From assembly GCA_964461725.1 (NCBI GenBank), contig CAYWVN010000002.1:1-46061 (forward strand): a DNA stretch of 46,061 nt, read 5' to 3'. Origin of the DNA: an uncultured Coriobacteriia bacterium (GTDB lineage Bacteria > Actinomycetota > Aquicultoria > CAYWVN01). The notes under the pieces are model-generated. The model was not told the DNA's origin. It worked only from the letters and a program-made list of their open reading frames with translations, and searched no databases. How positions within the stretch are numbered: position 1 is the first letter of the stretch; each line of letters opens with the position of its first letter. This document shows positions 2,015-9,332 of the stretch, piece after piece. The position numbers and the translations under genes are program-made.

Positions 2015-2827
2015 ATGGCGTCGGCACGGAAGAAGCTGCCACTGAGTATGCCCCCGGTTCCCCCGGTCTTCACCGCCGACGAGTGGATCTCCGCACAGCC
2101 TGACACGCCCAGGGCAACCGCCTTTGATCGGCTGCGACGCGCCCGTCAGCGAGGATTCGTGAAGGCAATAGGGAGCGGTACCGGAGTATATGCCGTTGTC
2201 CCGCCTGGTGTCAGCGCAGAGGCGTACGTGCCAGACAAGATGGTGGCTGCCAGCAAGTTGCTGCCGGATTGCCCCGTGGCCTACCATTCTGCCCTGGAGG
2301 TGCTCGGCCGCGCGCATTCCGTAGGAATGGCGGACATAACGATGCTGTGTACGAAGCAGACGCCGCCCCGCCGGCTCGGTCCATGGAGCGTCAAGCCGGT
2401 GCGGGCTCCCCGAGCGCTTCGTGACAAGAACGCGGCGAACTTCGGCGTCACGAAGTTCAAGCGGCAAGACGGCGAGGCTCTGGTAACGAATGCGTCCCGC
2501 ACGCTCGTGGATTGCCTGGACCGCCTGGAGCTCGGAGGCGGCTTCGAAGAGGTCGTGCTGAGCCTGGAGAGCTACCCGACCGTGGATTTTGACGAAATAC
2601 TGGCGTACCTAGATCTGCTCGGGAGCCCGACAACCGTTGCGAGAGTGGGCTACGCACTCGATGCCTATGCGGAGCGCCTCTACTTCACGGACGAGGTCCA
2701 AAGCAGATTCCGGGACAGGCTGCCGTCGCGGCCCGTCTATCTGAGGCGCGAGACTCCGACACGCCTGGTAGCCAAGTGGCGCCTTCTCGTGCCGGAGAGA
2801 CTGCTCCCCGAGGAGTGGGAGGAATGA
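2015..2827 (+). CDS. AbiEi-family antitoxin / transcriptional regulator (type IV TA, abortive infection)
   Basis: 270 aa with a strong SD (GAAGGAGGAATAAGGA). It has an N-terminal wHTH-like segment (FDRLRRARQRGFVKAIGSGTGVYAVV) and a ...CPVAYHSALEVLG... core typical of AbiEi. Its stop overlaps the next start (ATGA at 2824-2827). Confidence 0.8.
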   Translation: MASARKKLPLSMPPVPPVFTADEWISAQPDTPRATAFDRLRRARQRGFVKAIGSGTGVYAVVPPGVSAEAYVPDKMVAASKLLPDCPVAYHSALEVLGRAHSVGMADITMLCTKQTPPRRLGPWSVKPVRAPRALRDKNAANFGVTKFKRQDGEALVTNASRTLVDCLDRLELGGGFEEVVLSLESYPTVDFDEILAYLDLLGSPTTVARVGYALDAYAERLYFTDEVQSRFRDRLPSRPVYLRRETPTRLVAKWRLLVPERLLPEEWEE

Positions 2828-3780
2828 GCCTTAGTCCGGCACGAATCGACCTGGCCGGCCTTGACCAGTCAACGCGGGAGAAGGTCGACCGGCTCGTGGA
2901 TGTGCTGTCCGAGGTGGCGAAGCATCCTCTGCTAGGAGAAGTGCTGGCGCTCAAGGGCGGCACCGCCATCAATCTCTTCTGGCTGGATCTCCCACGACTG
3001 TCAATCGATATAGACTTCAATTGCCTCATGGGTGCAGAAGAGCCGGCCACGGGCGGGGTCCGCCGCGAAATCGAGCTTGCTGTCAGTTCGGTGGCAAGGG
3101 CAATGGGATACACCGTGCAGATGGGTAAGGACGCTCATGCCGGCCGCAAGATCTTCCTCAACTATGTCGGGGAGGCCAGCCGCAAGACCGACAACCTGAA
3201 AGTCGACCTGAACTTCCTGATGCGGGCCAAGCTGGTCGACCTTGAGAACCGGGTGGCCAGGTGGCCCGGCGCTTCCCAGCCCCTTCCGGTGCTCCGTATG
3301 GAGGAGATATACGGTAGTAAGGTTGCAGCCCTCGTGCAGCGCACGGCGGCGCGAGATCTGTTTGACGTCTACGCGCTGCGCCACTCCGGGGTGGAGATGG
3401 ACGGCCCGCTACTGCACGCCTGTGCCGCCTTCTATCTGTCGCTGACGAAGACGTTCCCCGAGAACATGGGGGACAGAGCGCTGGAGCGCGCGGGAAGGCA
3501 CACTGATCTCGGCGATCTGGCCGGCCTGGTCAGTGCCGATTCGCTGCCGGGTCCTCGTGAGATGGCGCAGGCTGCGGTAGAGGTGATAGAGCCGATGATC
3601 GACCTCACGGGATTCGCGGCATCCTACTACCAGGCCATGAGCCGAGGCGAATACAGGCCGGAGCTGATCTTCGGCGCCTGGCCGACCGTCCTCGAGAACG
3701 CCAGGGACCATCCGGCGGGTCGCTGGAAAGCCAAGAACATCGCCGAGCATCGGGAGAAGCAGTCATCCTCCAACGCCTGA
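2824..3780 (+). CDS. AbiEii/AbiGii-family nucleotidyltransferase toxin (DUF1814)
   Basis: 318 aa from ATG 2824. The LALKGGTAINLFWLDLPRLSIDIDF signature is characteristic of AbiEii toxins. It is translationally coupled to AbiEi. Confidence 0.85.
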   Translation: MSLSPARIDLAGLDQSTREKVDRLVDVLSEVAKHPLLGEVLALKGGTAINLFWLDLPRLSIDIDFNCLMGAEEPATGGVRREIELAVSSVARAMGYTVQMGKDAHAGRKIFLNYVGEASRKTDNLKVDLNFLMRAKLVDLENRVARWPGASQPLPVLRMEEIYGSKVAALVQRTAARDLFDVYALRHSGVEMDGPLLHACAAFYLSLTKTFPENMGDRALERAGRHTDLGDLAGLVSADSLPGPREMAQAAVEVIEPMIDLTGFAASYYQAMSRGEYRPELIFGAWPTVLENARDHPAGRWKAKNIAEHREKQSSSNA

Positions 3781-3785
3781 GCGGC

Positions 3786-4295
3786 CTACTCCACCTTCAG
3801 CGCGCCGTCGTCCAGGACGCGCATCGTCTGCCACTCGTAGCGCTCTTTCTCGACGGCACGCTCGATGCTCTTCTGGAGCCGCCGGCGCTCGGCGCTCCTC
3901 GTGCGGCCGTCCAGCAGCATGACGTTCTTTATCGGCTCGCAGTCGTGCATGCCGTTGAAGACCACGTAGTCGACCGGGTGGAACATCGCCTTGGCGTCCT
4001 GCGGGTCCAACTTCAGCGGACTGCACACCGGGTCGAGCTGCCTTACCCTGGCCTTGGCCTCCTTCCGCCCGGCGTCGGTCCCCTTCTGCTGGAGCGCGGA
4101 TCTCTCGAGCTCGATCTTCTCCTCCAGCTTGTCCAGGCGCGCGATCTCCCTGTCCAGCGCGTCCATCCAGTCGGCCTCCGGTTTCTTCCTCAGGTAGATG
4201 CGGCAGTCGCTTAGGCGAAATAGCTCCGCGCAGTTGGGACAGACGCCGAAGATCTGCCGGTGCAGCGTGAAGAACCTCTGGATGTCCGACTTCAT
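3786..4295 (-). CDS. COG4741/PF10107-like protein (endonuclease related to archaeal Holliday junction resolvase), paralogue B
   Basis: 169 aa. It has an N-terminal Cys pair (CPNC), a central coiled-coil-like segment (DREIARLDKLEEKIELERSALQQK) and a C-terminal block FHPVDYVVF...LLDGRT...AVEKERYEW. Its ATG overlaps the corrected stop of paralogue A (ATGA at 4292-4295). Confidence 0.7.
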   Translation of the reverse strand: MKSDIQRFFTLHRQIFGVCPNCAELFRLSDCRIYLRKKPEADWMDALDREIARLDKLEEKIELERSALQQKGTDAGRKEAKARVRQLDPVCSPLKLDPQDAKAMFHPVDYVVFNGMHDCEPIKNVMLLDGRTRSAERRRLQKSIERAVEKERYEWQTMRVLDDGALKVE

Positions 4296-4802
4296 CGGGC
4301 CACCTCCGGCTCATAGGTGTCCCACACGACGCGTCCTTCCTCGACCGCCTTCTTGATCTGGAGCTGCGGCCCGGCCAGGCGGCTCTTCCCGGTCTTCACC
4401 TCGAGGAACACGATGCGGCTGACCGACCCCTTTCTCGCTCAGGCCCTCGAAGACCATGAAGTCGATGGGGTCGAAGAGCGACCGGCAGTCGTGGCGCTCG
4501 AAGCGGAATCCGGGCAGGCACGGGAGGAAATGCTCCACCTGCTTTCCGATGTTTGCCGCCTGCGCCTGCCGCTTGGACGTCTCGGGGATCTGCTTCTTGA
4601 GCTCCCGCAGCGCCTTCTTCCGGGCTTTGAGCTCGGCCAGGCACCGCTCGTAGGTCTCCTCGGCCGCGGGCATGAACTCGTCCAGAAAGAAGAGACCGGC
4701 GTCCTTGAGGCGCACCGGCGCCCCGCAGCACGGGCACTCCGCGAAGAACTTGCCCTCCTGGAGTTCGGTGATGACCTTGTGCGCGTCCGCTGGTTGGTTC
4801 AT
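4292..4802 (-). pseudogene. COG4741/PF10107-like nuclease, paralogue A, with an apparent +1 frameshift in a GGGG run
   Basis: ATG 4800-4802 is preceded by SD GGAGAAAGGA. The protein reads MNQPADAHKVITELQEGKFFAECPCCGAPVRL...FDPIDFMVFEGLSEKG, then the called frame degenerates (VGQPHRVPRGEDREE...). Skipping one G of the run (plus-strand cccc at 4427-4430) gives SVSRIVFLEVKTGKSRLAGPQLQIKKAVEEGRVVWDTYEPEVAR*. That tail aligns without gaps to paralogue B and restores a D...ExK motif. Confidence 0.75.
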
Positions 4803-4849: not shown

Positions 4850-5015
4850 TCACTTCGCCACCGGTGCACGTTCTCCTGCCAACCGCGTCCGGCCAGTGTA
4901 ACTGCCCCTCGATACAGTACCTCCACGATCCCCGACGCCAACGACACCGCCCGCCGCCCGCCGCACCGCCGGCACTCCATGTCACTTCGCCACGGGTGCC
5001 CATTCTCCTGCCACC
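4850..5015. repeat. Direct repeat of about 34 nt at 132-nt spacing (1.25 copies of a 132-nt unit containing R)
   Basis: 4850-4884, tcacttcgccaccggtgcacgttctcctgccaacc, against 4982-5015, tcacttcgccacgggtgcccattctcctgccacc: about 31 of 34 identical. A short (CCA)4(GCA)3 microsatellite follows at 5011-5031. Confidence 0.75.
4868..4956. repeat. Repeat R, copy 2 (89 nt), in the 5' leader/promoter region of paralogue A
   Basis: 87 of 89 nt identical to 1750-1838. It lies 66-154 nt upstream of ATG 4802 on the minus strand. Confidence 0.9.
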
Positions 5016-5046
5016 ACCACCAGCAGCAGCAGCGCGGGCCCCGCGG

Positions 5047-5228
5047 GGTTGTCGCAGATTGCGACAACCTTCTCCCTCAGACCCGCGCCCTGTCTGTCCA
5101 GTGAAACAGCGTGTGTTTGAGATGCCATTCTGGCACCTGAAGCCGCGCTTGAGATCGCAATTTGTGACCTCCGAACTGTTTGCCCAGCTCGCCAAGGGGA
5201 ACTTGATATCGCAAATTGCGATATCAAG
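5047..5228. promoter_or_regulatory. Three related palindromes with core TCGCA-N3/4-TGCGA (operator-like)
   Basis: 5047-5069, ggttgtcgcaGATtgcgacaacc, has perfect 10-bp arms. 5151-5171, gagatcgcaatttgtgacctc, is imperfect. 5202-5228, cttgatatcgcaaAttgcgatatcaag, has perfect 13-bp arms. All lie in the divergent non-coding region between paralogue A and the wHTH-MNT gene. Confidence 0.5.
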
Positions 5229-5276
5229 ATGCTACACTTTCACCATTTCGTAGCACGCCCGGTGCCGGCCCGGGGT

Positions 5277-5317
5277 TTGCCCCTTCGGGCAGAAGGACTG
5301 CCCCTTGGTACGTACCG
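5277..5317 (+). repeat. Repeat E, copy 1 (41-nt core, weaker similarity to about 5336)
   Basis: ttgccccttcgggcagaaggactgccccttggtacgtaccg matches 8651-8691 at 37 of 41 positions, same orientation. It contains the hairpin TTGCCC-CTTC-GGGCAA, which overlaps an alternative hairpin GGGCAG-AAGGA-CTGCCC. Confidence 0.85.
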
Positions 5318-5381
5318 TCAGCCCTTCCACGGCAGGCACCCTGACACCGCACCGGCTGAAAGGCACCTGCGTTATGGATAC

Positions 5382-5410
5382 TTGACCGGCTGATATGGCT
5401 ATGCGAGTAT
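5382..5410 (+). promoter_or_regulatory. Sigma-70-like promoter giving a leaderless wHTH-MNT mRNA
   Basis: TTGACC (5382-5387), a 17-nt spacer, then GAGTAT (5405-5410). ATG 5417 is 7 nt downstream of the -10 element and has no SD. Confidence 0.4.
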
Positions 5411-5416
5411 CCAGTT

Positions 5417-6034
5417 ATGAAGACGAGCGGGGTCGTCGAACTGCTTTTCGGATCGCCGGGGAGGGTGAAACTCCTGCGCCGTCTGGCCGAGGCCCCTCAG
5501 CCACTTTCGGGGCGGCAGGCGGCGGAGCTGGCCGGTCTTACGCATCGCGGGGCGATCCAGGCGCTCTCGGTCTTGGTCGACTTGGGGGTCGTCACGCAGC
5601 GCCAGGCCGGACGGGCCTACCAGTATGCCCTCGCGGAGAGCAACATCCTGGTGCAAGAGATCGTGCTCCCGGCTTTCGCCGCGGAAAAGCGGCTCCGTCG
5701 TATCTTGGAGGAAGACATCGTGGACCAGTTCGCCGGCTTGGCTCTGTCGCTCGTCCTCTTTGGAAGCGTCGCCAGAGGGGAACAGACGCCGCAAAGCGAC
5801 GTCGACTTGTTGGCGGTGGTTGCCAACGAGAAGGACAGAGAGACCATGGAAGAGATCGCAAGCAGCCGGGCGCCCGCGTTCCAGTCAAGATTCGGAGCGC
5901 CGCTGGCGGTGCATGTGCTCACCGTAGGCCAACTGAGAGAGAAGCGTCGCTCCCCCTTCTTGGTCGAGGCAGCCCGCGACGGCGTCGTCCTCCATGGCAA
6001 GCCGCTGAAGGAGCTGAGCCGGAGCCGTGGGTAG
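5417..6034 (+). CDS. Winged-HTH fused to a minimal nucleotidyltransferase (MNT-type antitoxin of HEPN/MNT modules)
   Basis: 205 aa. The N-terminus is wHTH-like (LSGRQAAELAGLTHRGAIQALSVLVDLGVV). The NTase motif is LFGSVARGEQTPQSDVDLL (GS-x9-DxD). Confidence 0.75.
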   Translation: MKTSGVVELLFGSPGRVKLLRRLAEAPQPLSGRQAAELAGLTHRGAIQALSVLVDLGVVTQRQAGRAYQYALAESNILVQEIVLPAFAAEKRLRRILEEDIVDQFAGLALSLVLFGSVARGEQTPQSDVDLLAVVANEKDRETMEEIASSRAPAFQSRFGAPLAVHVLTVGQLREKRRSPFLVEAARDGVVLHGKPLKELSRSRG

Positions 6035-6424
6035 TCGCAAGGTCAGGCGGGCCGGCAAGACCGATTCCGCGGTCTTCATCGGAAAGGCCGAGCAGTTCCT
6101 CGCAACCATGGAGCCGGCGCTTAGTTCCTCGCGATGGGACTCGGCGGGCCTGCAGGCTGTCCACGCGGTGATATCGGCGCCGATGCCGTAGTGGCCTACT
6201 ACTCCGGTGTCCGCAGCGCCGACAACGATCACCGGGCCGCGGTGGCAGTGCTTCAAGAGACCTTGGGGTCCAAGTCCGCGTCCGCTTCCCGGCATCTGAG
6301 CCGCGTCATCGCGAAGAAGAACGTGGTCGAGTACGAACAGCGTCGCCTGACGGAGAAGGAGGCGCGGGACATGTCGCGCGACGCGACTCGTTTCGTCTCG
6401 TGGGCCCGCGGGATGTTGCCCTAG
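6027..6424 (+). pseudogene. HEPN-domain toxin partner of the MNT, with an apparent 1-nt deletion
   Basis: GTG 6027 overlaps the MNT stop (GTGGGTAG). It opens VGSRKVRRAGKTDSAVFIGKAEQFLATMEPALSSSRWDSAGLQAVHAVISA and then hits TAG at 6189-6191. The neighbouring frame (ORF 6134..6424) continues ADAVVAYYSGVRSADNDHRAAVAVLQ..., which contains the HEPN Rx4-6H motif (RSADNDH). One base appears to be missing near 6177-6181. Confidence 0.7.
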
Positions 6425-6460: not shown

Positions 6461-7642
6461 TCACACCACCACGAGCTCCCCGTCGGCACACACGGTCACG
6501 TTGTCGGCCACCTCGGCGAGCGCGCCCGGATTCTCCGTGTGAATCGGGATCACCCGCTTTGCGCCCACGGCGGCCGCCAGCCGGCGCAAGTCCTCAGGCT
6601 CCGCGTGCCCGCTCGCGTGGATGAACTGTGGCTCTGTCCCGTGCCGCTCGCAGAACGGCCTGAGGCAGGCGTCCGAATCCCAGTAGCCTGGCCACAGCGA
6701 CCAGACGATACCCACTCGGCTCTCATCGCCCAGCATCTCCAGCAGCTTGACCGCGAACCCGTTCGACCGCGCGATCATCACCGTCTCCGAGCGCCCGCGC
6801 TTGATCTCGTCGCGCTTGATGCCTCTGCGGCGGGCACGCTCGAGGACGAAAGCCGTGTAGAGGTCGATCACCAGCAGGCGCCCGCACCGCTTGGCCGCCC
6901 AGTATACCGAAACCAGCCGGTCGATGTTCTGTGCCGAGCAGACCGTGACGATGAGGTCAGGGTGCGACGAGAAGAGGCGGACCAGCCCGTCTTCCACGTC
7001 CGTCTCGCTGCGGCAATCGCGCGGGCTCGAGCCGAGGGTCGTACCCTCGAGGAGCAGCACGTCCACGTCGCGCGGCGGCTCGGCGACCAGCGCCTCGAAG
7101 CGCCAGCCCGTGCGGCTGTGCGAGCGCAGGTCGCCGGAGTACAGGACGCGGCGGCCGTCGGCCTTGACCAGGATCGCCCGGGAATCCGGCGCGGCGTGGT
7201 CGACAGGGATGCCGCAGATGGTGAAGGAGCCGATGGCGACAGCATCTTCGTCCGGCAGCTCGCGCATATTCCTGGGCAGCGCGGCGTCAGGGACGAAGAG
7301 GTGCGATACCTTGAGCATCTCGATTGTGCCGCGGCTGCCGTAGACGGGCACGTCCGGATGGACGTGATGCGCCAGACCGTGGTGATCCAGGTGGGCATGC
7401 GACAGCACCAGGGCCGAGAACTCGGGCACCGAACCGGCGTACAGCCCGTCGATGTCAGGGAGCACGCCTTCGGCGCGGAGCTCCTGGCCCGGGCGGCGCA
7501 TTGTGCCGCGCGGCCAGTCGCCGCCGTCAGGCTGGGCCAGCGGCATCCCGACATCGAGCAGGATGCGCTCGCCGCTGTCGGCCCGAAGCTCGACGCACGA
7601 ACCGCCGATCTGGTGTGAGCCACGATGGATGGTCAGCTGCAT
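6461..7642 (-). CDS. MBL-fold metallo-hydrolase, RNase J / beta-CASP-like nuclease candidate
   Basis: 393 aa. HxHxDH motif SHAHLDHHG. The C-terminal FIHASGHAEPEDLRRLAAAVGAKRVIPIHTE resembles the SGHA...P.HGE signature of RNase J/beta-CASP enzymes. Its start is 4 nt after the upstream stop and has no SD of its own. Confidence 0.75.
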   Translation of the reverse strand: MQLTIHRGSHQIGGSCVELRADSGERILLDVGMPLAQPDGGDWPRGTMRRPGQELRAEGVLPDIDGLYAGSVPEFSALVLSHAHLDHHGLAHHVHPDVPVYGSRGTIEMLKVSHLFVPDAALPRNMRELPDEDAVAIGSFTICGIPVDHAAPDSRAILVKADGRRVLYSGDLRSHSRTGWRFEALVAEPPRDVDVLLLEGTTLGSSPRDCRSETDVEDGLVRLFSSHPDLIVTVCSAQNIDRLVSVYWAAKRCGRLLVIDLYTAFVLERARRRGIKRDEIKRGRSETVMIARSNGFAVKLLEMLGDESRVGIVWSLWPGYWDSDACLRPFCERHGTEPQFIHASGHAEPEDLRRLAAAVGAKRVIPIHTENPGALAEVADNVTVCADGELVVV

Positions 7643-7646
7643 GTCA

Positions 7647-8582
7647 CTACTTACAGTGGATTAGGTCGCGGAACCGCTGCTTGAAATCATCCAGGTCATA
7701 GGCGGCCTGTTCCCAAAGTCCGTATCCGGCGAAGCAGCTTGTGGCGACCTTGAGCTGCGCACCCGGGCAATCCTTGGGGGATATGCTGTCGAGTTCTTGG
7801 CGCAGGATGTCCGACTCTGGGTCGTGATTGGCCAACATGAAGATGTACTCTGGCTTGTCGTCGCTGAAGCTCGTCACGCAGTTCCGCGTCGGGATCAGGC
7901 CCAGTTCGTGCTTCTGCTGGAAGACCGTGAGCAGCTCATCCTTGAGCTTGTCGACATGCGCCCGGTCGGCAAGGAACTCGCTCATGTCAGTGACGTGCTT
8001 TCTTAGGCCCGCGCTGCCACGGATCGAACCGTCACCGCATTTCAGCTCAATCAGCGCCAGCCCAACGCCGTCGGAACGCTTACGGGCGGCGGTGGTCGAG
8101 CGCCATTTCACGGCGACCATGTCGAAGCGCGCCTTGCGGTACGGGTACTCCATGTCGCAGATGAAGTAGTCAGTGGACGTCGCAGCCTTGCCGAAGTTGT
8201 TGTCTCTGACAATGAGCTGCTGGTACTCGCGCTCGTCCTTGCGGCGCTTGCCGAACCAGAGGTCCATGGCGTGCTTGAGGCGCGGGATGGCGGCGATCCA
8301 GTGGGCGGCCTCATCCTCAGTCTCGATGGCGGGTCCTGGGAGATGCCGCACGAAGTCGCGATCTGCTTCTGCAACGTACTTCTCGTCGAACACCCTCGCC
8401 GTCGGCGACTTGCGCCAGTTCTCGATTCTGAGCAGGCTGCCACCGCGGTAGTAGACGTTGAAGTAGTCGTCGCGAATCTCGAGGCACAGTGTCGAGTCCT
8501 GCTTGACGGAATCAAGGATTGGCTTCAGGCGTCCGCTCTTGAGGTCGTGCAGTAGCTTCGGGGACAGTCCACGTTTGGGCAT
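7647..8582 (-). CDS. Hypothetical protein with a PD-(D/E)xK-like nuclease signature
   Basis: The likely start is MPKRGLSPK at 8582, which has a strong SD (GGAAGGAAGAG); the track ORF extends to 8687. Motifs EREYQQLIV, RFDMVAVKW and GLALIELKCGDG fit an E...D...ExK core. The N- and C-terminal regions are unassigned. Confidence 0.55.
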   Translation of the reverse strand: MPKRGLSPKLLHDLKSGRLKPILDSVKQDSTLCLEIRDDYFNVYYRGGSLLRIENWRKSPTARVFDEKYVAEADRDFVRHLPGPAIETEDEAAHWIAAIPRLKHAMDLWFGKRRKDEREYQQLIVRDNNFGKAATSTDYFICDMEYPYRKARFDMVAVKWRSTTAARKRSDGVGLALIELKCGDGSIRGSAGLRKHVTDMSEFLADRAHVDKLKDELLTVFQQKHELGLIPTRNCVTSFSDDKPEYIFMLANHDPESDILRQELDSISPKDCPGAQLKVATSCFAGYGLWEQAAYDLDDFKQRFRDLIHCK

Positions 8583-8650
8583 CTCTTCCTTCCGTTCGGC
8601 CACGAATAGTCGGTCGCCAGCAATATACATGGCGCGTCTGACAGGCGCGG

Positions 8651-8691
8651 TTGCCCCTTCGGGCAAAAGGACTGCCTCTTGGTGCATACCG
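8651..8691 (+). repeat. Repeat E, copy 2
   Basis: ttgccccttcgggcaaaaggactgcctcttggtgcataccg matches 5277-5317 at 37 of 41 positions. It lies in the divergent intergenic region between the PD-(D/E)xK-like gene and the RhuM gene. Confidence 0.85.
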
Positions 8692-8765
8692 CCTGCCGTT
8701 CCGTGAAGGGTACCGTGGGCGATGGCTGCGGCAGCAGCTGTGTGGAACGGCTAGACGGAGGCCTG

Positions 8766-9332
8766 ATGGGCGTGGAGAAGCAGCCAGAACGGGGTGGAAT
8801 CGTCCTCTATCAATCCCCGGGGGGTCAGGTCCGGCTTGACGGGCGCCTCGAACGGGACACCGTCTGGCTGTCGTTGGACCAGATGGCCGCGCTCTTCGAG
8901 CGAGACAAGTCCGTGATCTCGCGGCACCTGCGAAACGTGTTTGCGTCCGGTGAGCTGGAGAGACAGTCAGTTGTTGCAGAAAATGCAACAGCTGCTGCTG
9001 ACGGGAAGACCTACCAGGTCGACTACTTCAACCTCGACGCGATAATCTCCGTCGGATACCGGGTCAATTCCAGGACAGGCATCCAGTTCCGGATATGGGC
9101 CACCGCCACGCTGCGAGATCATCTGCTGCGCGGCTACACGCTCAATGAGCGACGACTGCGTGAGAGAGGCTTCGACGAAATCGAGCAGACCGTCGGGCTC
9201 TTCGGGCAGGAACGCGGCAACCAACTCGGCGCCATCGTGGGCGCGGTAGAGCAGACCTTCGACGGACAAACGCTGTACCCGAGCGTTCAGGCGCGCGCCG
9301 CTCACCTGCTCTACTTCGTCATCAAGGCATGA
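8766..9332 (+). pseudogene. RhuM-family protein with the beginning of a Fic/Doc-like C-terminal domain, 3'-truncated
   Basis: From ATG 8766 the protein reads MGVEKQPERGGIVLYQSPGGQVRLDGRLERDTVWLSLDQMAALFERDKSVISRHLRNVF...YFNLDAIISVGYRVNSRTGIQFRIWAT, which is RhuM-like. The tail FDGQTLYPSVQARAAHLLYFVIKA* stops just before the position where the HPFxDGNKR motif would be expected. No frame downstream supplies that motif. Confidence 0.65.

Follow-up and report, generated by a model that had tools for sequence, protein, structure and literature searches.

Beta-CASP enzymes of the metallo-beta-lactamase (MBL) fold act in RNA processing and in DNA repair, SNM1/Artemis being an example, and RNase J-type enzymes degrade from 5'-monophosphate ends. 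MBL-fold proteins also take part in bacterial immunity. HamM/HamMAB, Avs-trypsin-MBL and Canu CanC are protease-gated MBL pro-nucleases of defence systems (PMC12799240, PMC13069673); the MBL proteins of HamM, Avs and CanC are similar to the ComEC-type DNases of competence and depend for their activation on a neighbouring trypsin-like or caspase protease (PMC12799240). Cas14 of the type VII CRISPR-Cas system is a beta-CASP effector (PMC13069675, PMC12669027). The subject of the present study is a pair of adjacent genes, here named A and B, which encode a predicted restriction endonuclease (REase)-fold protein and a beta-CASP MBL nuclease, respectively. They lie on a contig of an uncultured Coriobacteriia bacterium (assembly GCA_964461725.1, contig CAYWVN010000002.1), positions 1 to 46,061 of which, counted in nucleotides (nt), are referred to below as the window.

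An initial annotation of the window, made by a model from the sequence alone, had pointed to the pair as a candidate nuclease module that resembled no named anti-phage system. This view is upheld by the present searches, in which no system model of PADLOC v2, Pfam or NCBIfam and no system found in the literature corresponded to the pair. Neither protein has a match in PADLOC-DB v2.0.0, even at E ≤ 1, and the MBL defence effectors found in the full-text literature (trypsin-MBL/HamMAB, 6A-MBL, Guanyin GuyB and Cas14) are none of them paired with an A-like protein. Homology searches, to which the initial annotation had entrusted the question of a housekeeping function, assigned neither family to a housekeeping pathway. 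Here we show that A and B form a cassette that is conserved and co-inherited across phyla, and we put at about one chance in two the reading that the two nucleases make up an independent unit which moves by horizontal transfer and most likely serves in defence against phages or mobile DNA.

Results and discussion

Pairing of A and B in the window and in other genomes

Both open reading frames (ORFs) were found as initially described, on the minus strand, co-directional and 4 nt apart, the first encoding 311 amino acids (aa) and preceded directly by the Shine-Dalgarno-like sequence GGAAGGAAGAG (Table 1). No GGAGG-like sequence precedes the ATG of gene B in the window. The homologues of A start with the corresponding MRGLS, and on this ground 8582 is preferred as the start of gene A to two other in-frame ATGs, 8630 and 8687. 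In the segment from 8583 to 8765, proposed at first as the native promoter region, a promoter scan upstream of gene A detected no sigma-70-like site. Two tRNAs are the only Rfam matches in the window. Judging from the arrangement of the reading frames, genes A and B are predicted to be co-transcribed and translationally coupled.

If the pair is a genuine module it should recur elsewhere, as the initial annotation had recognised, and it does. One genome per species was scanned for A, 185,579 species in all, which yielded 223 A relatives, and 80 loci were kept. B adjoins A in 58 of these 80 loci, in the order A-B (47 loci) or B-A (9 loci) on the same strand, or on opposite strands (2 loci); B is absent from 17 loci that have room for it on both sides, and 5 loci end at a contig edge. 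For 31 of the 43 A-B pairs in which the distance could be measured, the start codon of B is -13 to +26 nt away from the stop codon of A, so that the close spacing of the two genes in the window is typical of the family. The pairwise distances within A and within B are correlated over 45 pairs with r = 0.76, a value reached in none of 2000 permutations, and this correlation could partly reflect shared phylogeny. One protein, P0101, is a single in-frame A-B (A-MBL) fusion, which could be a sequencing artefact.

The association is also apparent when B is taken as the starting point. The three closest B homologues on long contigs all have an A homologue directly upstream, and 80 B-centred metagenome loci contained 52 adjacent same-strand ORFs of 230-400 aa, 23 of which match the A profile. 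Among the other 29 adjacent partners, 18 carry a D..(E/D)xK motif after hydrophobic strands, compared with 9 of 50 non-adjacent ORFs. B almost always adjoins A or another protein of ~300 aa with REase motifs. The pairing proposed at the outset is therefore recurrent but not exclusive, with A occurring alone or with other nucleases, and B with other REase-like proteins.

Protein A, a predicted divergent nuclease of an unannotated family

Protein A has no Pfam, NCBIfam or PADLOC match, even at E ≤ 1, and no match in the PDB by sequence or profile search. Its 641 homologues in a protein collection clustered at 90% are all labelled 'hypothetical'. When 1.84 billion representatives (50% identity) were searched with a profile, 1917 members of the A family were retrieved at E ≤ 1e-3, of which 605 at E ≤ 1e-30. 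E117, D143, D154 and E179 are invariant among 149 family representatives (50% identity), K181 is kept in at least 90% of them, and N252-H253-D254 is invariant in an alignment of 24 sequences. The E...D...ExK motifs first picked out by eye of the model, EREYQQ (E117), RFDMVAV (D154) and IELK (E179-x-K181), thus hold invariant residues of the family.

The AlphaFold2 model of A was obtained with good confidence values (predicted local distance difference test, pLDDT, 88; predicted template modelling score, pTM, 0.87). It comprises a helix (117-129), three strands (139-148, 151-159 and 173-182), a second helix (193-226) and a further strand (245-251), and this alpha-beta-beta-beta-alpha-beta order is the topology of the restriction endonuclease core. 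The catalytic residues E117, D154 and E179/K181 fall on the elements 117-129, 151-159 and 173-182, respectively. The catalytic signature and the core topology of the model are both in favour of the REase fold that had been suspected from the motifs. Foldseek found no match at E ≤ 0.001 for the model in the PDB or BFVD, and the top PDB matches, all of them below the threshold, are PD-(D/E)xK nucleases, namely Can1 (E = 0.035), EndoMS (0.16) and MunI (0.45). PDDEXK_9, which matches 11 of the 149 members and reaches E = 8e-4 at best, is the only recurrent weak Pfam match of the family. In view of the signature, the modelled topology and these weak matches, we treat A as a PD-(D/E)xK nuclease, predicted to be catalytically intact and highly divergent.

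Residues 1-88 form two helices and a four-strand meander in the model, and no significant structural match to this N-terminal domain was found with Foldseek. The initial annotation had left two parts of A unassigned, ~130 aa at the N-terminus and ~110 aa at the C-terminus. The former description applies to the N-terminal ~88 aa, a separate domain with the motif YYRGG, and fails for the rest; the latter was mistaken, the C-terminal part being the remainder of the nuclease core (beta4, the invariant NHD and beta5). Some A homologues carry N-terminal extensions of ~220 aa, which are of two types (P0310, P0354 and P0383 for the first, P0317 and P0358 for the second). The first type also bears a C-terminal Cys-rich tail, and neither the N-terminal nor the C-terminal extensions have a Pfam match.

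Protein B, a beta-CASP nuclease with an RNase J-like core

Protein B matches the Pfam families Lactamase_B_2 (9e-16) and RMMBL (5e-4). Its MBL motifs (D30, H82xH84xD86H87, H149 and D171) and its beta-CASP motifs (E199, H342/H346 in HASGHA and H368 in IPIHTE) are invariant in 46 relatives, which agrees with the HxHxDH and HASGHA...IPIHTE signatures that had first drawn attention to the protein. The AlphaFold2 model (pLDDT 85) has its closest match, both in fold and in sequence, in the PDB entry 2az4 (Foldseek E = 1.6e-26, TM 0.76; profile E = 1.4e-32). The catalytic cores of RNase J follow in many structures (Foldseek ~1e-23, TM ~0.75), and TTHA0252 and CPSF73 are next, with E values for RNase J, TTHA0252 and CPSF73 ranging from 1e-24 to 1e-17. 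B is a beta-CASP metallo-beta-lactamase nuclease in which all catalytic motifs are present.

Two closer assignments were considered and rejected. As an RNase J orthologue, B scores 57.7 bits with TIGR00649 (cut-off 400) and 41.2 bits with NF047419 (cut-off 820), and with its 393 aa the alignment ends with the MBL core, the C-terminal domain being missing. The RNase J-like character attributed to it at first is thus right for the beta-CASP core and does not extend to orthology. With EF2904, the protein of the 2az4 structure, B shares 22% identity and has a different gene context; the EF2904 family is vertically conserved in Lactobacillales within an ABC-transporter operon, and B is therefore placed outside it. 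A motif C of the His type, as in B, is reportedly a signature of RNA-type beta-CASP proteins, and together with the HxSGH motif it suggests that RNA or single-stranded nucleic acids may be the substrates.

One segment of the beta-CASP domain has 38 aa in the window copy of B and 74-82 aa in 153 of 168 relatives, with one subgroup at 52-56 aa, and the confidence of the model dips to 63-72 at residues 261-280, the deletion junction. The missing ~40 aa include near-invariant positions, and the island around the pair also holds a truncated RhuM ORF and a rearranged Endonuc_Holl copy (1643-1843), all of which would be expected if the window copy were a decaying remnant with a B inactivated by this deletion, whatever the family does. 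We consider such a decay improbable, as both frames are intact and all catalytic residues present, as the segment varies naturally in length, a change which the subgroup at 52-56 aa indicates to be tolerated, and as the model of B is confident overall and superimposes on 2az4 with a TM of ~0.76.

Exchangeable partners

The alternative partners of B fall into several groups, one of which (g133) is a remote homologue of A (hhalign, 96% probability). The comparison of the other groups with A by hhalign, made on small alignments, was not significant, and only sub-threshold matches to HSDR_N_2 or NucS_C were seen. At least five groups of B partners have no significant sequence similarity to A.

The partner of A is likewise exchangeable for other phosphodiesterases. 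Four loci (L008, L017, L020 and L021) have a REase-ARP/PDDEXK_13 gene directly upstream of A, and in L080 such a gene lies on the opposite strand. Of the four, L017, L020 and L021 are related Binatia loci, in which the REase-ARP gene and A immediately follow priA-def-fmt. In L077 the gene of a calcineurin-like phosphoesterase overlaps the stop codon of A, and in a Sedimentisphaerales locus (L169, 9001-12207) an unannotated protein of 308 aa starts 3 nt after A, in place of B. The A gene of the latter locus stands in a dense defence island, flanked by a HEPN-SNF2 helicase with an AAA_30/UvrD helicase and by a Prok-E2/ThiF/JAB gene. Copies of A without B are scattered among the paired lineages, some being 74-77% identical to paired copies, so that the loss or replacement of B appears to be both recurrent and recent.

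Additional genes accompany the pair in some lineages. A winged-helix protein of ~196 aa is encoded between A and B, or after B, in several of them, and a WYL-WCX regulator precedes B in L129. In L089 and L090, which hold some of the closest relatives of B, a fusion of a uracil-DNA-glycosylase superfamily (UDG) domain with DUF4268 (~1636-2862) follows B, instead of an A gene before it.

Distribution, genomic context and possible function

The A family is present in ~0.1% of the species genomes (223 matches in 185,579), with a patchy distribution over more than 15 phyla. By tblastn, none of the 50,697 phage and 72,556 plasmid records searched gave a match to A, and A relatives were found on 3 of 2.9 million IMG/VR contigs only; A as a phage- or plasmid-borne gene was rejected on these grounds. 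Such a rare and patchy distribution, with no match in these phage and plasmid records, is typical of a small accessory cassette that spreads by horizontal transfer. Neighbours of the defence type at other loci include PLD+SNF2, MZB/PLD/GIY-YIG, PycTM, HEPN-SNF2, Prok-E2/ThiF/JAB, Schlafen-AlbA2 and T5orf172/DUF4041 genes, and PADLOC matches among the neighbours comprise PD-Lambda-1, mREase_IV, PsyrA, ShosA, BnzB, DrmD and Cas3. No methyltransferase gene lies beside the pair in the window, and none is a recurrent immediate neighbour elsewhere, those seen being mostly of the ubiE type; a classical restriction-modification system was rejected, as the operon contains no cognate DNA methyltransferase.

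Taken together, the distribution and context suggest a role in defence, and the reading of A/B as a defence cassette with a split between sensor and effector is a credible candidate that rests on genomic context. In such a cassette A, by means of its N-terminal domain and its nuclease core, would recognise and cut foreign nucleic acid, probably DNA, without the help of a cognate methyltransferase, and it would double as a targeting or licensing partner of B. The latter would be made in a fixed ratio with A, to which it would probably be bound, and would degrade the target exo- or endonucleolytically from the ends made by A, in the manner of RNase J-type enzymes at their 5'-monophosphate ends. 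B may be a potentially dangerous effector which needs its partner, and A could persist alone. This scheme would accommodate DNA or RNA as substrate, and direct clearance or abortive infection as outcome. More tentatively, and with somewhat less than even confidence, we propose that the cassette represents a new class of immune module, in which the effector is always an RNase J-like beta-CASP nuclease and is licensed by interchangeable REase-fold partners, namely the A family and at least five other groups.

Several observations weigh against a defence cassette of this kind. Among characterised nucleases, none is a significant match for protein A by structure or by profile, and the RNA-type motif C of B leaves it uncertain whether B would degrade DNA. 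The window copy of B, with its deletion of ~40 aa in the beta-CASP domain, may be impaired. Many neighbours are housekeeping genes (Iso_dh, LpxK, FBPase), with rpsO-pnp and sulfatase contexts among them, and a share of the correlation between A and B distances may be due to phylogeny, as mentioned above.

The pair might instead be a toxin-antitoxin-like or abortive-infection module, with B as a toxic RNase J-like ribonuclease acting on cellular and phage RNA, and with A or its equivalent as neutraliser or as trigger sensor. The order of the genes, partner first and effector second with translational coupling, is in line with it, as is the fact that B hardly ever occurs without a partner of ~300 aa and A frequently stands by itself, in the way of orphan antitoxins; the RNA-type motifs of B (the motif C His and HxSGH) and the abundance of toxin-antitoxin genes in the window (AbiE and the MNT/PDC-M05 pair) point the same way. 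The catalytic tetrad of A, however, is invariant in the 149 diverse representatives, and a mere inhibitor would not need it; moreover A is large for this role, with its 311 aa and no detectable helix-turn-helix, and it pairs with other nucleases too. We hold this alternative to be about as unlikely as the decay of the window copy. That the pair serves housekeeping or stress-related nucleic-acid processing or repair (end processing, cross-link repair, RNA maturation) and not immunity would fit the known roles of beta-CASP enzymes, the purely housekeeping neighbourhoods of several A/B loci and the metabolic ABC-transporter operon in which EF2904/2az4, the closest solved relative of B, is found, yet it seems very unlikely for genes that occur in ~0.1% of species genomes over more than 15 phyla without conserved synteny, that seem to have been inserted on their own, as a unit of two genes, amid unrelated ones (after priA-def-fmt, for example) and beside recurring defence neighbours, and that encode a B only 22% identical to EF2904 in a different context and far under the RNase J threshold (57.7 versus 400 bits).

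With its fold, its active site and its usual genomic partner assigned, A turns ~1900 clusters (50% identity) of 'hypothetical proteins' into a family that can be tested, and the B subfamily is now distinguished both from true RNase J and from EF2904, the function of which apparently lies with a transporter operon. If the defence reading of A/B is correct, nucleases of the beta-CASP/RNase J type join the repertoire of innate defence effectors, and the cassette adds a new case of sensor/effector modularity, in which the REase-fold partner is swapped around a fixed nuclease and vice versa. Should the new module class hold, RNase J-type chemistry would be an effector of innate immunity outside CRISPR type VII, and the ~300-aa partners would constitute a new and diversifying family of invader sensors. 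The cassette is found mostly in uncultured, non-model phyla, which may explain its absence from screens centred on E. coli and Bacillus.

The island around the pair

The positions of the two genes, of their motifs and of the surrounding features are listed in Table 1.

Table 1. Features of the A/B pair and of the surrounding island in the window
Feature	Position	Strand	Evidence
Gene A (311 aa, predicted PD-(D/E)xK-type nuclease with N-terminal domain, unannotated family)	7647-8582	-	ORF and start, homologues, AlphaFold2
Start and stop codons of gene A	ATG 8582-8580, TAG 7649-7647	-	Sequence
Shine-Dalgarno-like GGAAGGAAGAG directly 5' of the gene A ATG	8583-8593	-	Sequence
A residues 1-88, N-terminal alpha/beta domain, nearly invariant YYRGG	8319-8582	-	AlphaFold2 and conservation
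A residues 117-254, nuclease core with E117, D143, D154, E179-x-K181 and N252-H253-D254	7821-8234	-	Conservation and AlphaFold2
4-nt spacer tgac between the gene A TAG and the gene B ATG	7643-7646	-	Sequence
Gene B (393 aa, beta-CASP metallo-beta-lactamase-fold nuclease, RNase J-like core)	6461-7642	-	Pfam, PDB matches, AlphaFold2, Foldseek
Start and stop codons of gene B	ATG 7642, stop 6463-6461	-	Sequence
B residues 82-87, HxHxDH metal-binding motif (HAHLDH)	7382-7399	-	Invariant in 46 relatives
B residues 342-368, beta-CASP motifs B (HASGHA) and C (IPIHTE, His type)	6539-6619	-	H342/H346/H368 invariant; aligns to the same region of 2az4
Approximate junction of the ~40-aa in-frame deletion in the beta-CASP domain of B	6830-6844	-	Length comparison and AlphaFold2 confidence
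AbiEi	2015-2827	+	PADLOC E = 1.8e-59
AbiEii, frame overlaps AbiEi	2776-3780	+	PADLOC E = 1.9e-64
Tandem Endonuc_Holl genes	3786-4295, 4311-4790	-	
96-aa MNT partner	6134-6424	+	PADLOC PDC-M05B E = 6.6e-6
Truncated RhuM-family ORF, at the island edge next to serS	8679-9332	+	PDC-S23/S05, Pfam Virulence_RhuM

The initial view of an island rich in toxin-antitoxin genes is borne out, since a complete AbiEi/AbiEii pair, PDC-M05A/B and RhuM (PDC-S23/S05) flank the A/B pair. The more precise placement of the pair between a HEPN/MNT module and a RhuM gene is correct in part. The MNT gene is real, with matches to Pfam NTP_transf_2 and PADLOC PDC-M05A, and so is the RhuM ORF, but Pfam gave no HEPN match for the 96-aa protein encoded with MNT, and the RhuM ORF is truncated, covering only the first ~140 of ~330 positions of PDC-S23/S05 and positions 1-71 of 252 of Pfam Virulence_RhuM. 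From its PDC-M05A and PDC-M05B matches, the MNT pair was identified as the PADLOC candidate system PDC-M05.

Repeats were found at several places of the island. A direct repeat of 67 nt, at 5277-5343 and 8651-8717, is 79% identical between its two copies, the only ones in the window, where none is expected by chance; it opens with the hairpin GCCCCTTCGGGC and brackets the block formed by the MNT gene, PDC-M05B, B and A. It could correspond to the ends of an inserted unit, or to a leader that the MNT and RhuM genes, both on the plus strand, have in common. In the intergenic region before the MNT gene, an inverted repeat of 20 nt (5148-5167 and 5209-5228, 90% complementary, 41 nt apart) has the appearance of a putative operator. 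Further away, a stretch of ~200 nt (1643-1843) is 93-94% identical to 3782-3887 and 4861-4961, the pieces that flank the Endonuc_Holl pair, and looks like a rearranged copy of this region minus the intervening 973 nt.

Comparison with known systems

The protease-gated MBL modules resemble A/B in having an MBL-fold nuclease effector beside a controlling partner, in being modular and in their location in defence islands. B differs from their effectors in that it belongs to the beta-CASP type, is not accompanied by a protease gene and corresponds to no PADLOC model; no protease family was seen among the recurrent neighbours (150 flanking ORFs), and the neighbours in the window are the MNT/PDC-M05 pair and RhuM. 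Cas14 shares the beta-CASP type with B and is the only beta-CASP nuclease found described as an immune effector in the literature searched. In contrast to it, B scores 13.4 bits with the NCBIfam model cas14_MBL_CASP, the cut-off of which is 800, and no Cas5/Cas7 or other cas family was found among the neighbour ORFs scanned in the window, in which CRISPR arrays were not searched for.

For protein A, the nearest likenesses are Shedu/SduA, Hachiman HamA and the NucS/EndoMS-like proteins, which also combine an N-terminal accessory domain with a PD-(D/E)xK core, occur in the context of defence islands and can stand alone. A differs from them in that it matches none of their Pfam or PADLOC models and in that its usual partner is a beta-CASP nuclease and not a helicase.

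The Enterococcus faecalis protein EF2904, the structure of which (PDB 2az4) comes from structural genomics, is like B a short beta-CASP protein (~430 aa) without the C-terminal domain of RNase J. In contrast to B, it is found in enterococci, carnobacteria and streptococci, in an ABC-transporter operon with a 5'-nucleotidase and with no A-like neighbour. Its homologues, recovered by means of the PDB-aligned sequence, sit between BPD_transp_1 and SBP_bac_1 genes. The operon of three Enterococcus loci (L172-L174, MBL gene at 5001-6293) encodes an ATPase, two permeases, the MBL protein, a solute-binding protein and then a 5'-nucleotidase. The role of EF2904 is likely metabolic, and the operon context hints at the scavenging of nucleic acids or phosphodiesters.

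RNase J (PDB 3bk1, 5a0t and 7wnt), a beta-CASP 5'-3' exo/endoribonuclease of bacteria and archaea, has in common with B the MBL and beta-CASP core, all the metal-binding motifs, the motifs A, B and C (the last of the His type) and a motif B of the HxSGH type. The two are ~20% identical, and RNase J has ~555 aa with a C-terminal dimerisation domain, whereas B has 393 aa and lacks this domain. RNase J is a universal housekeeping gene; the B gene occurs rarely, is mobile and is coupled in an operon to the gene of a REase-fold protein.

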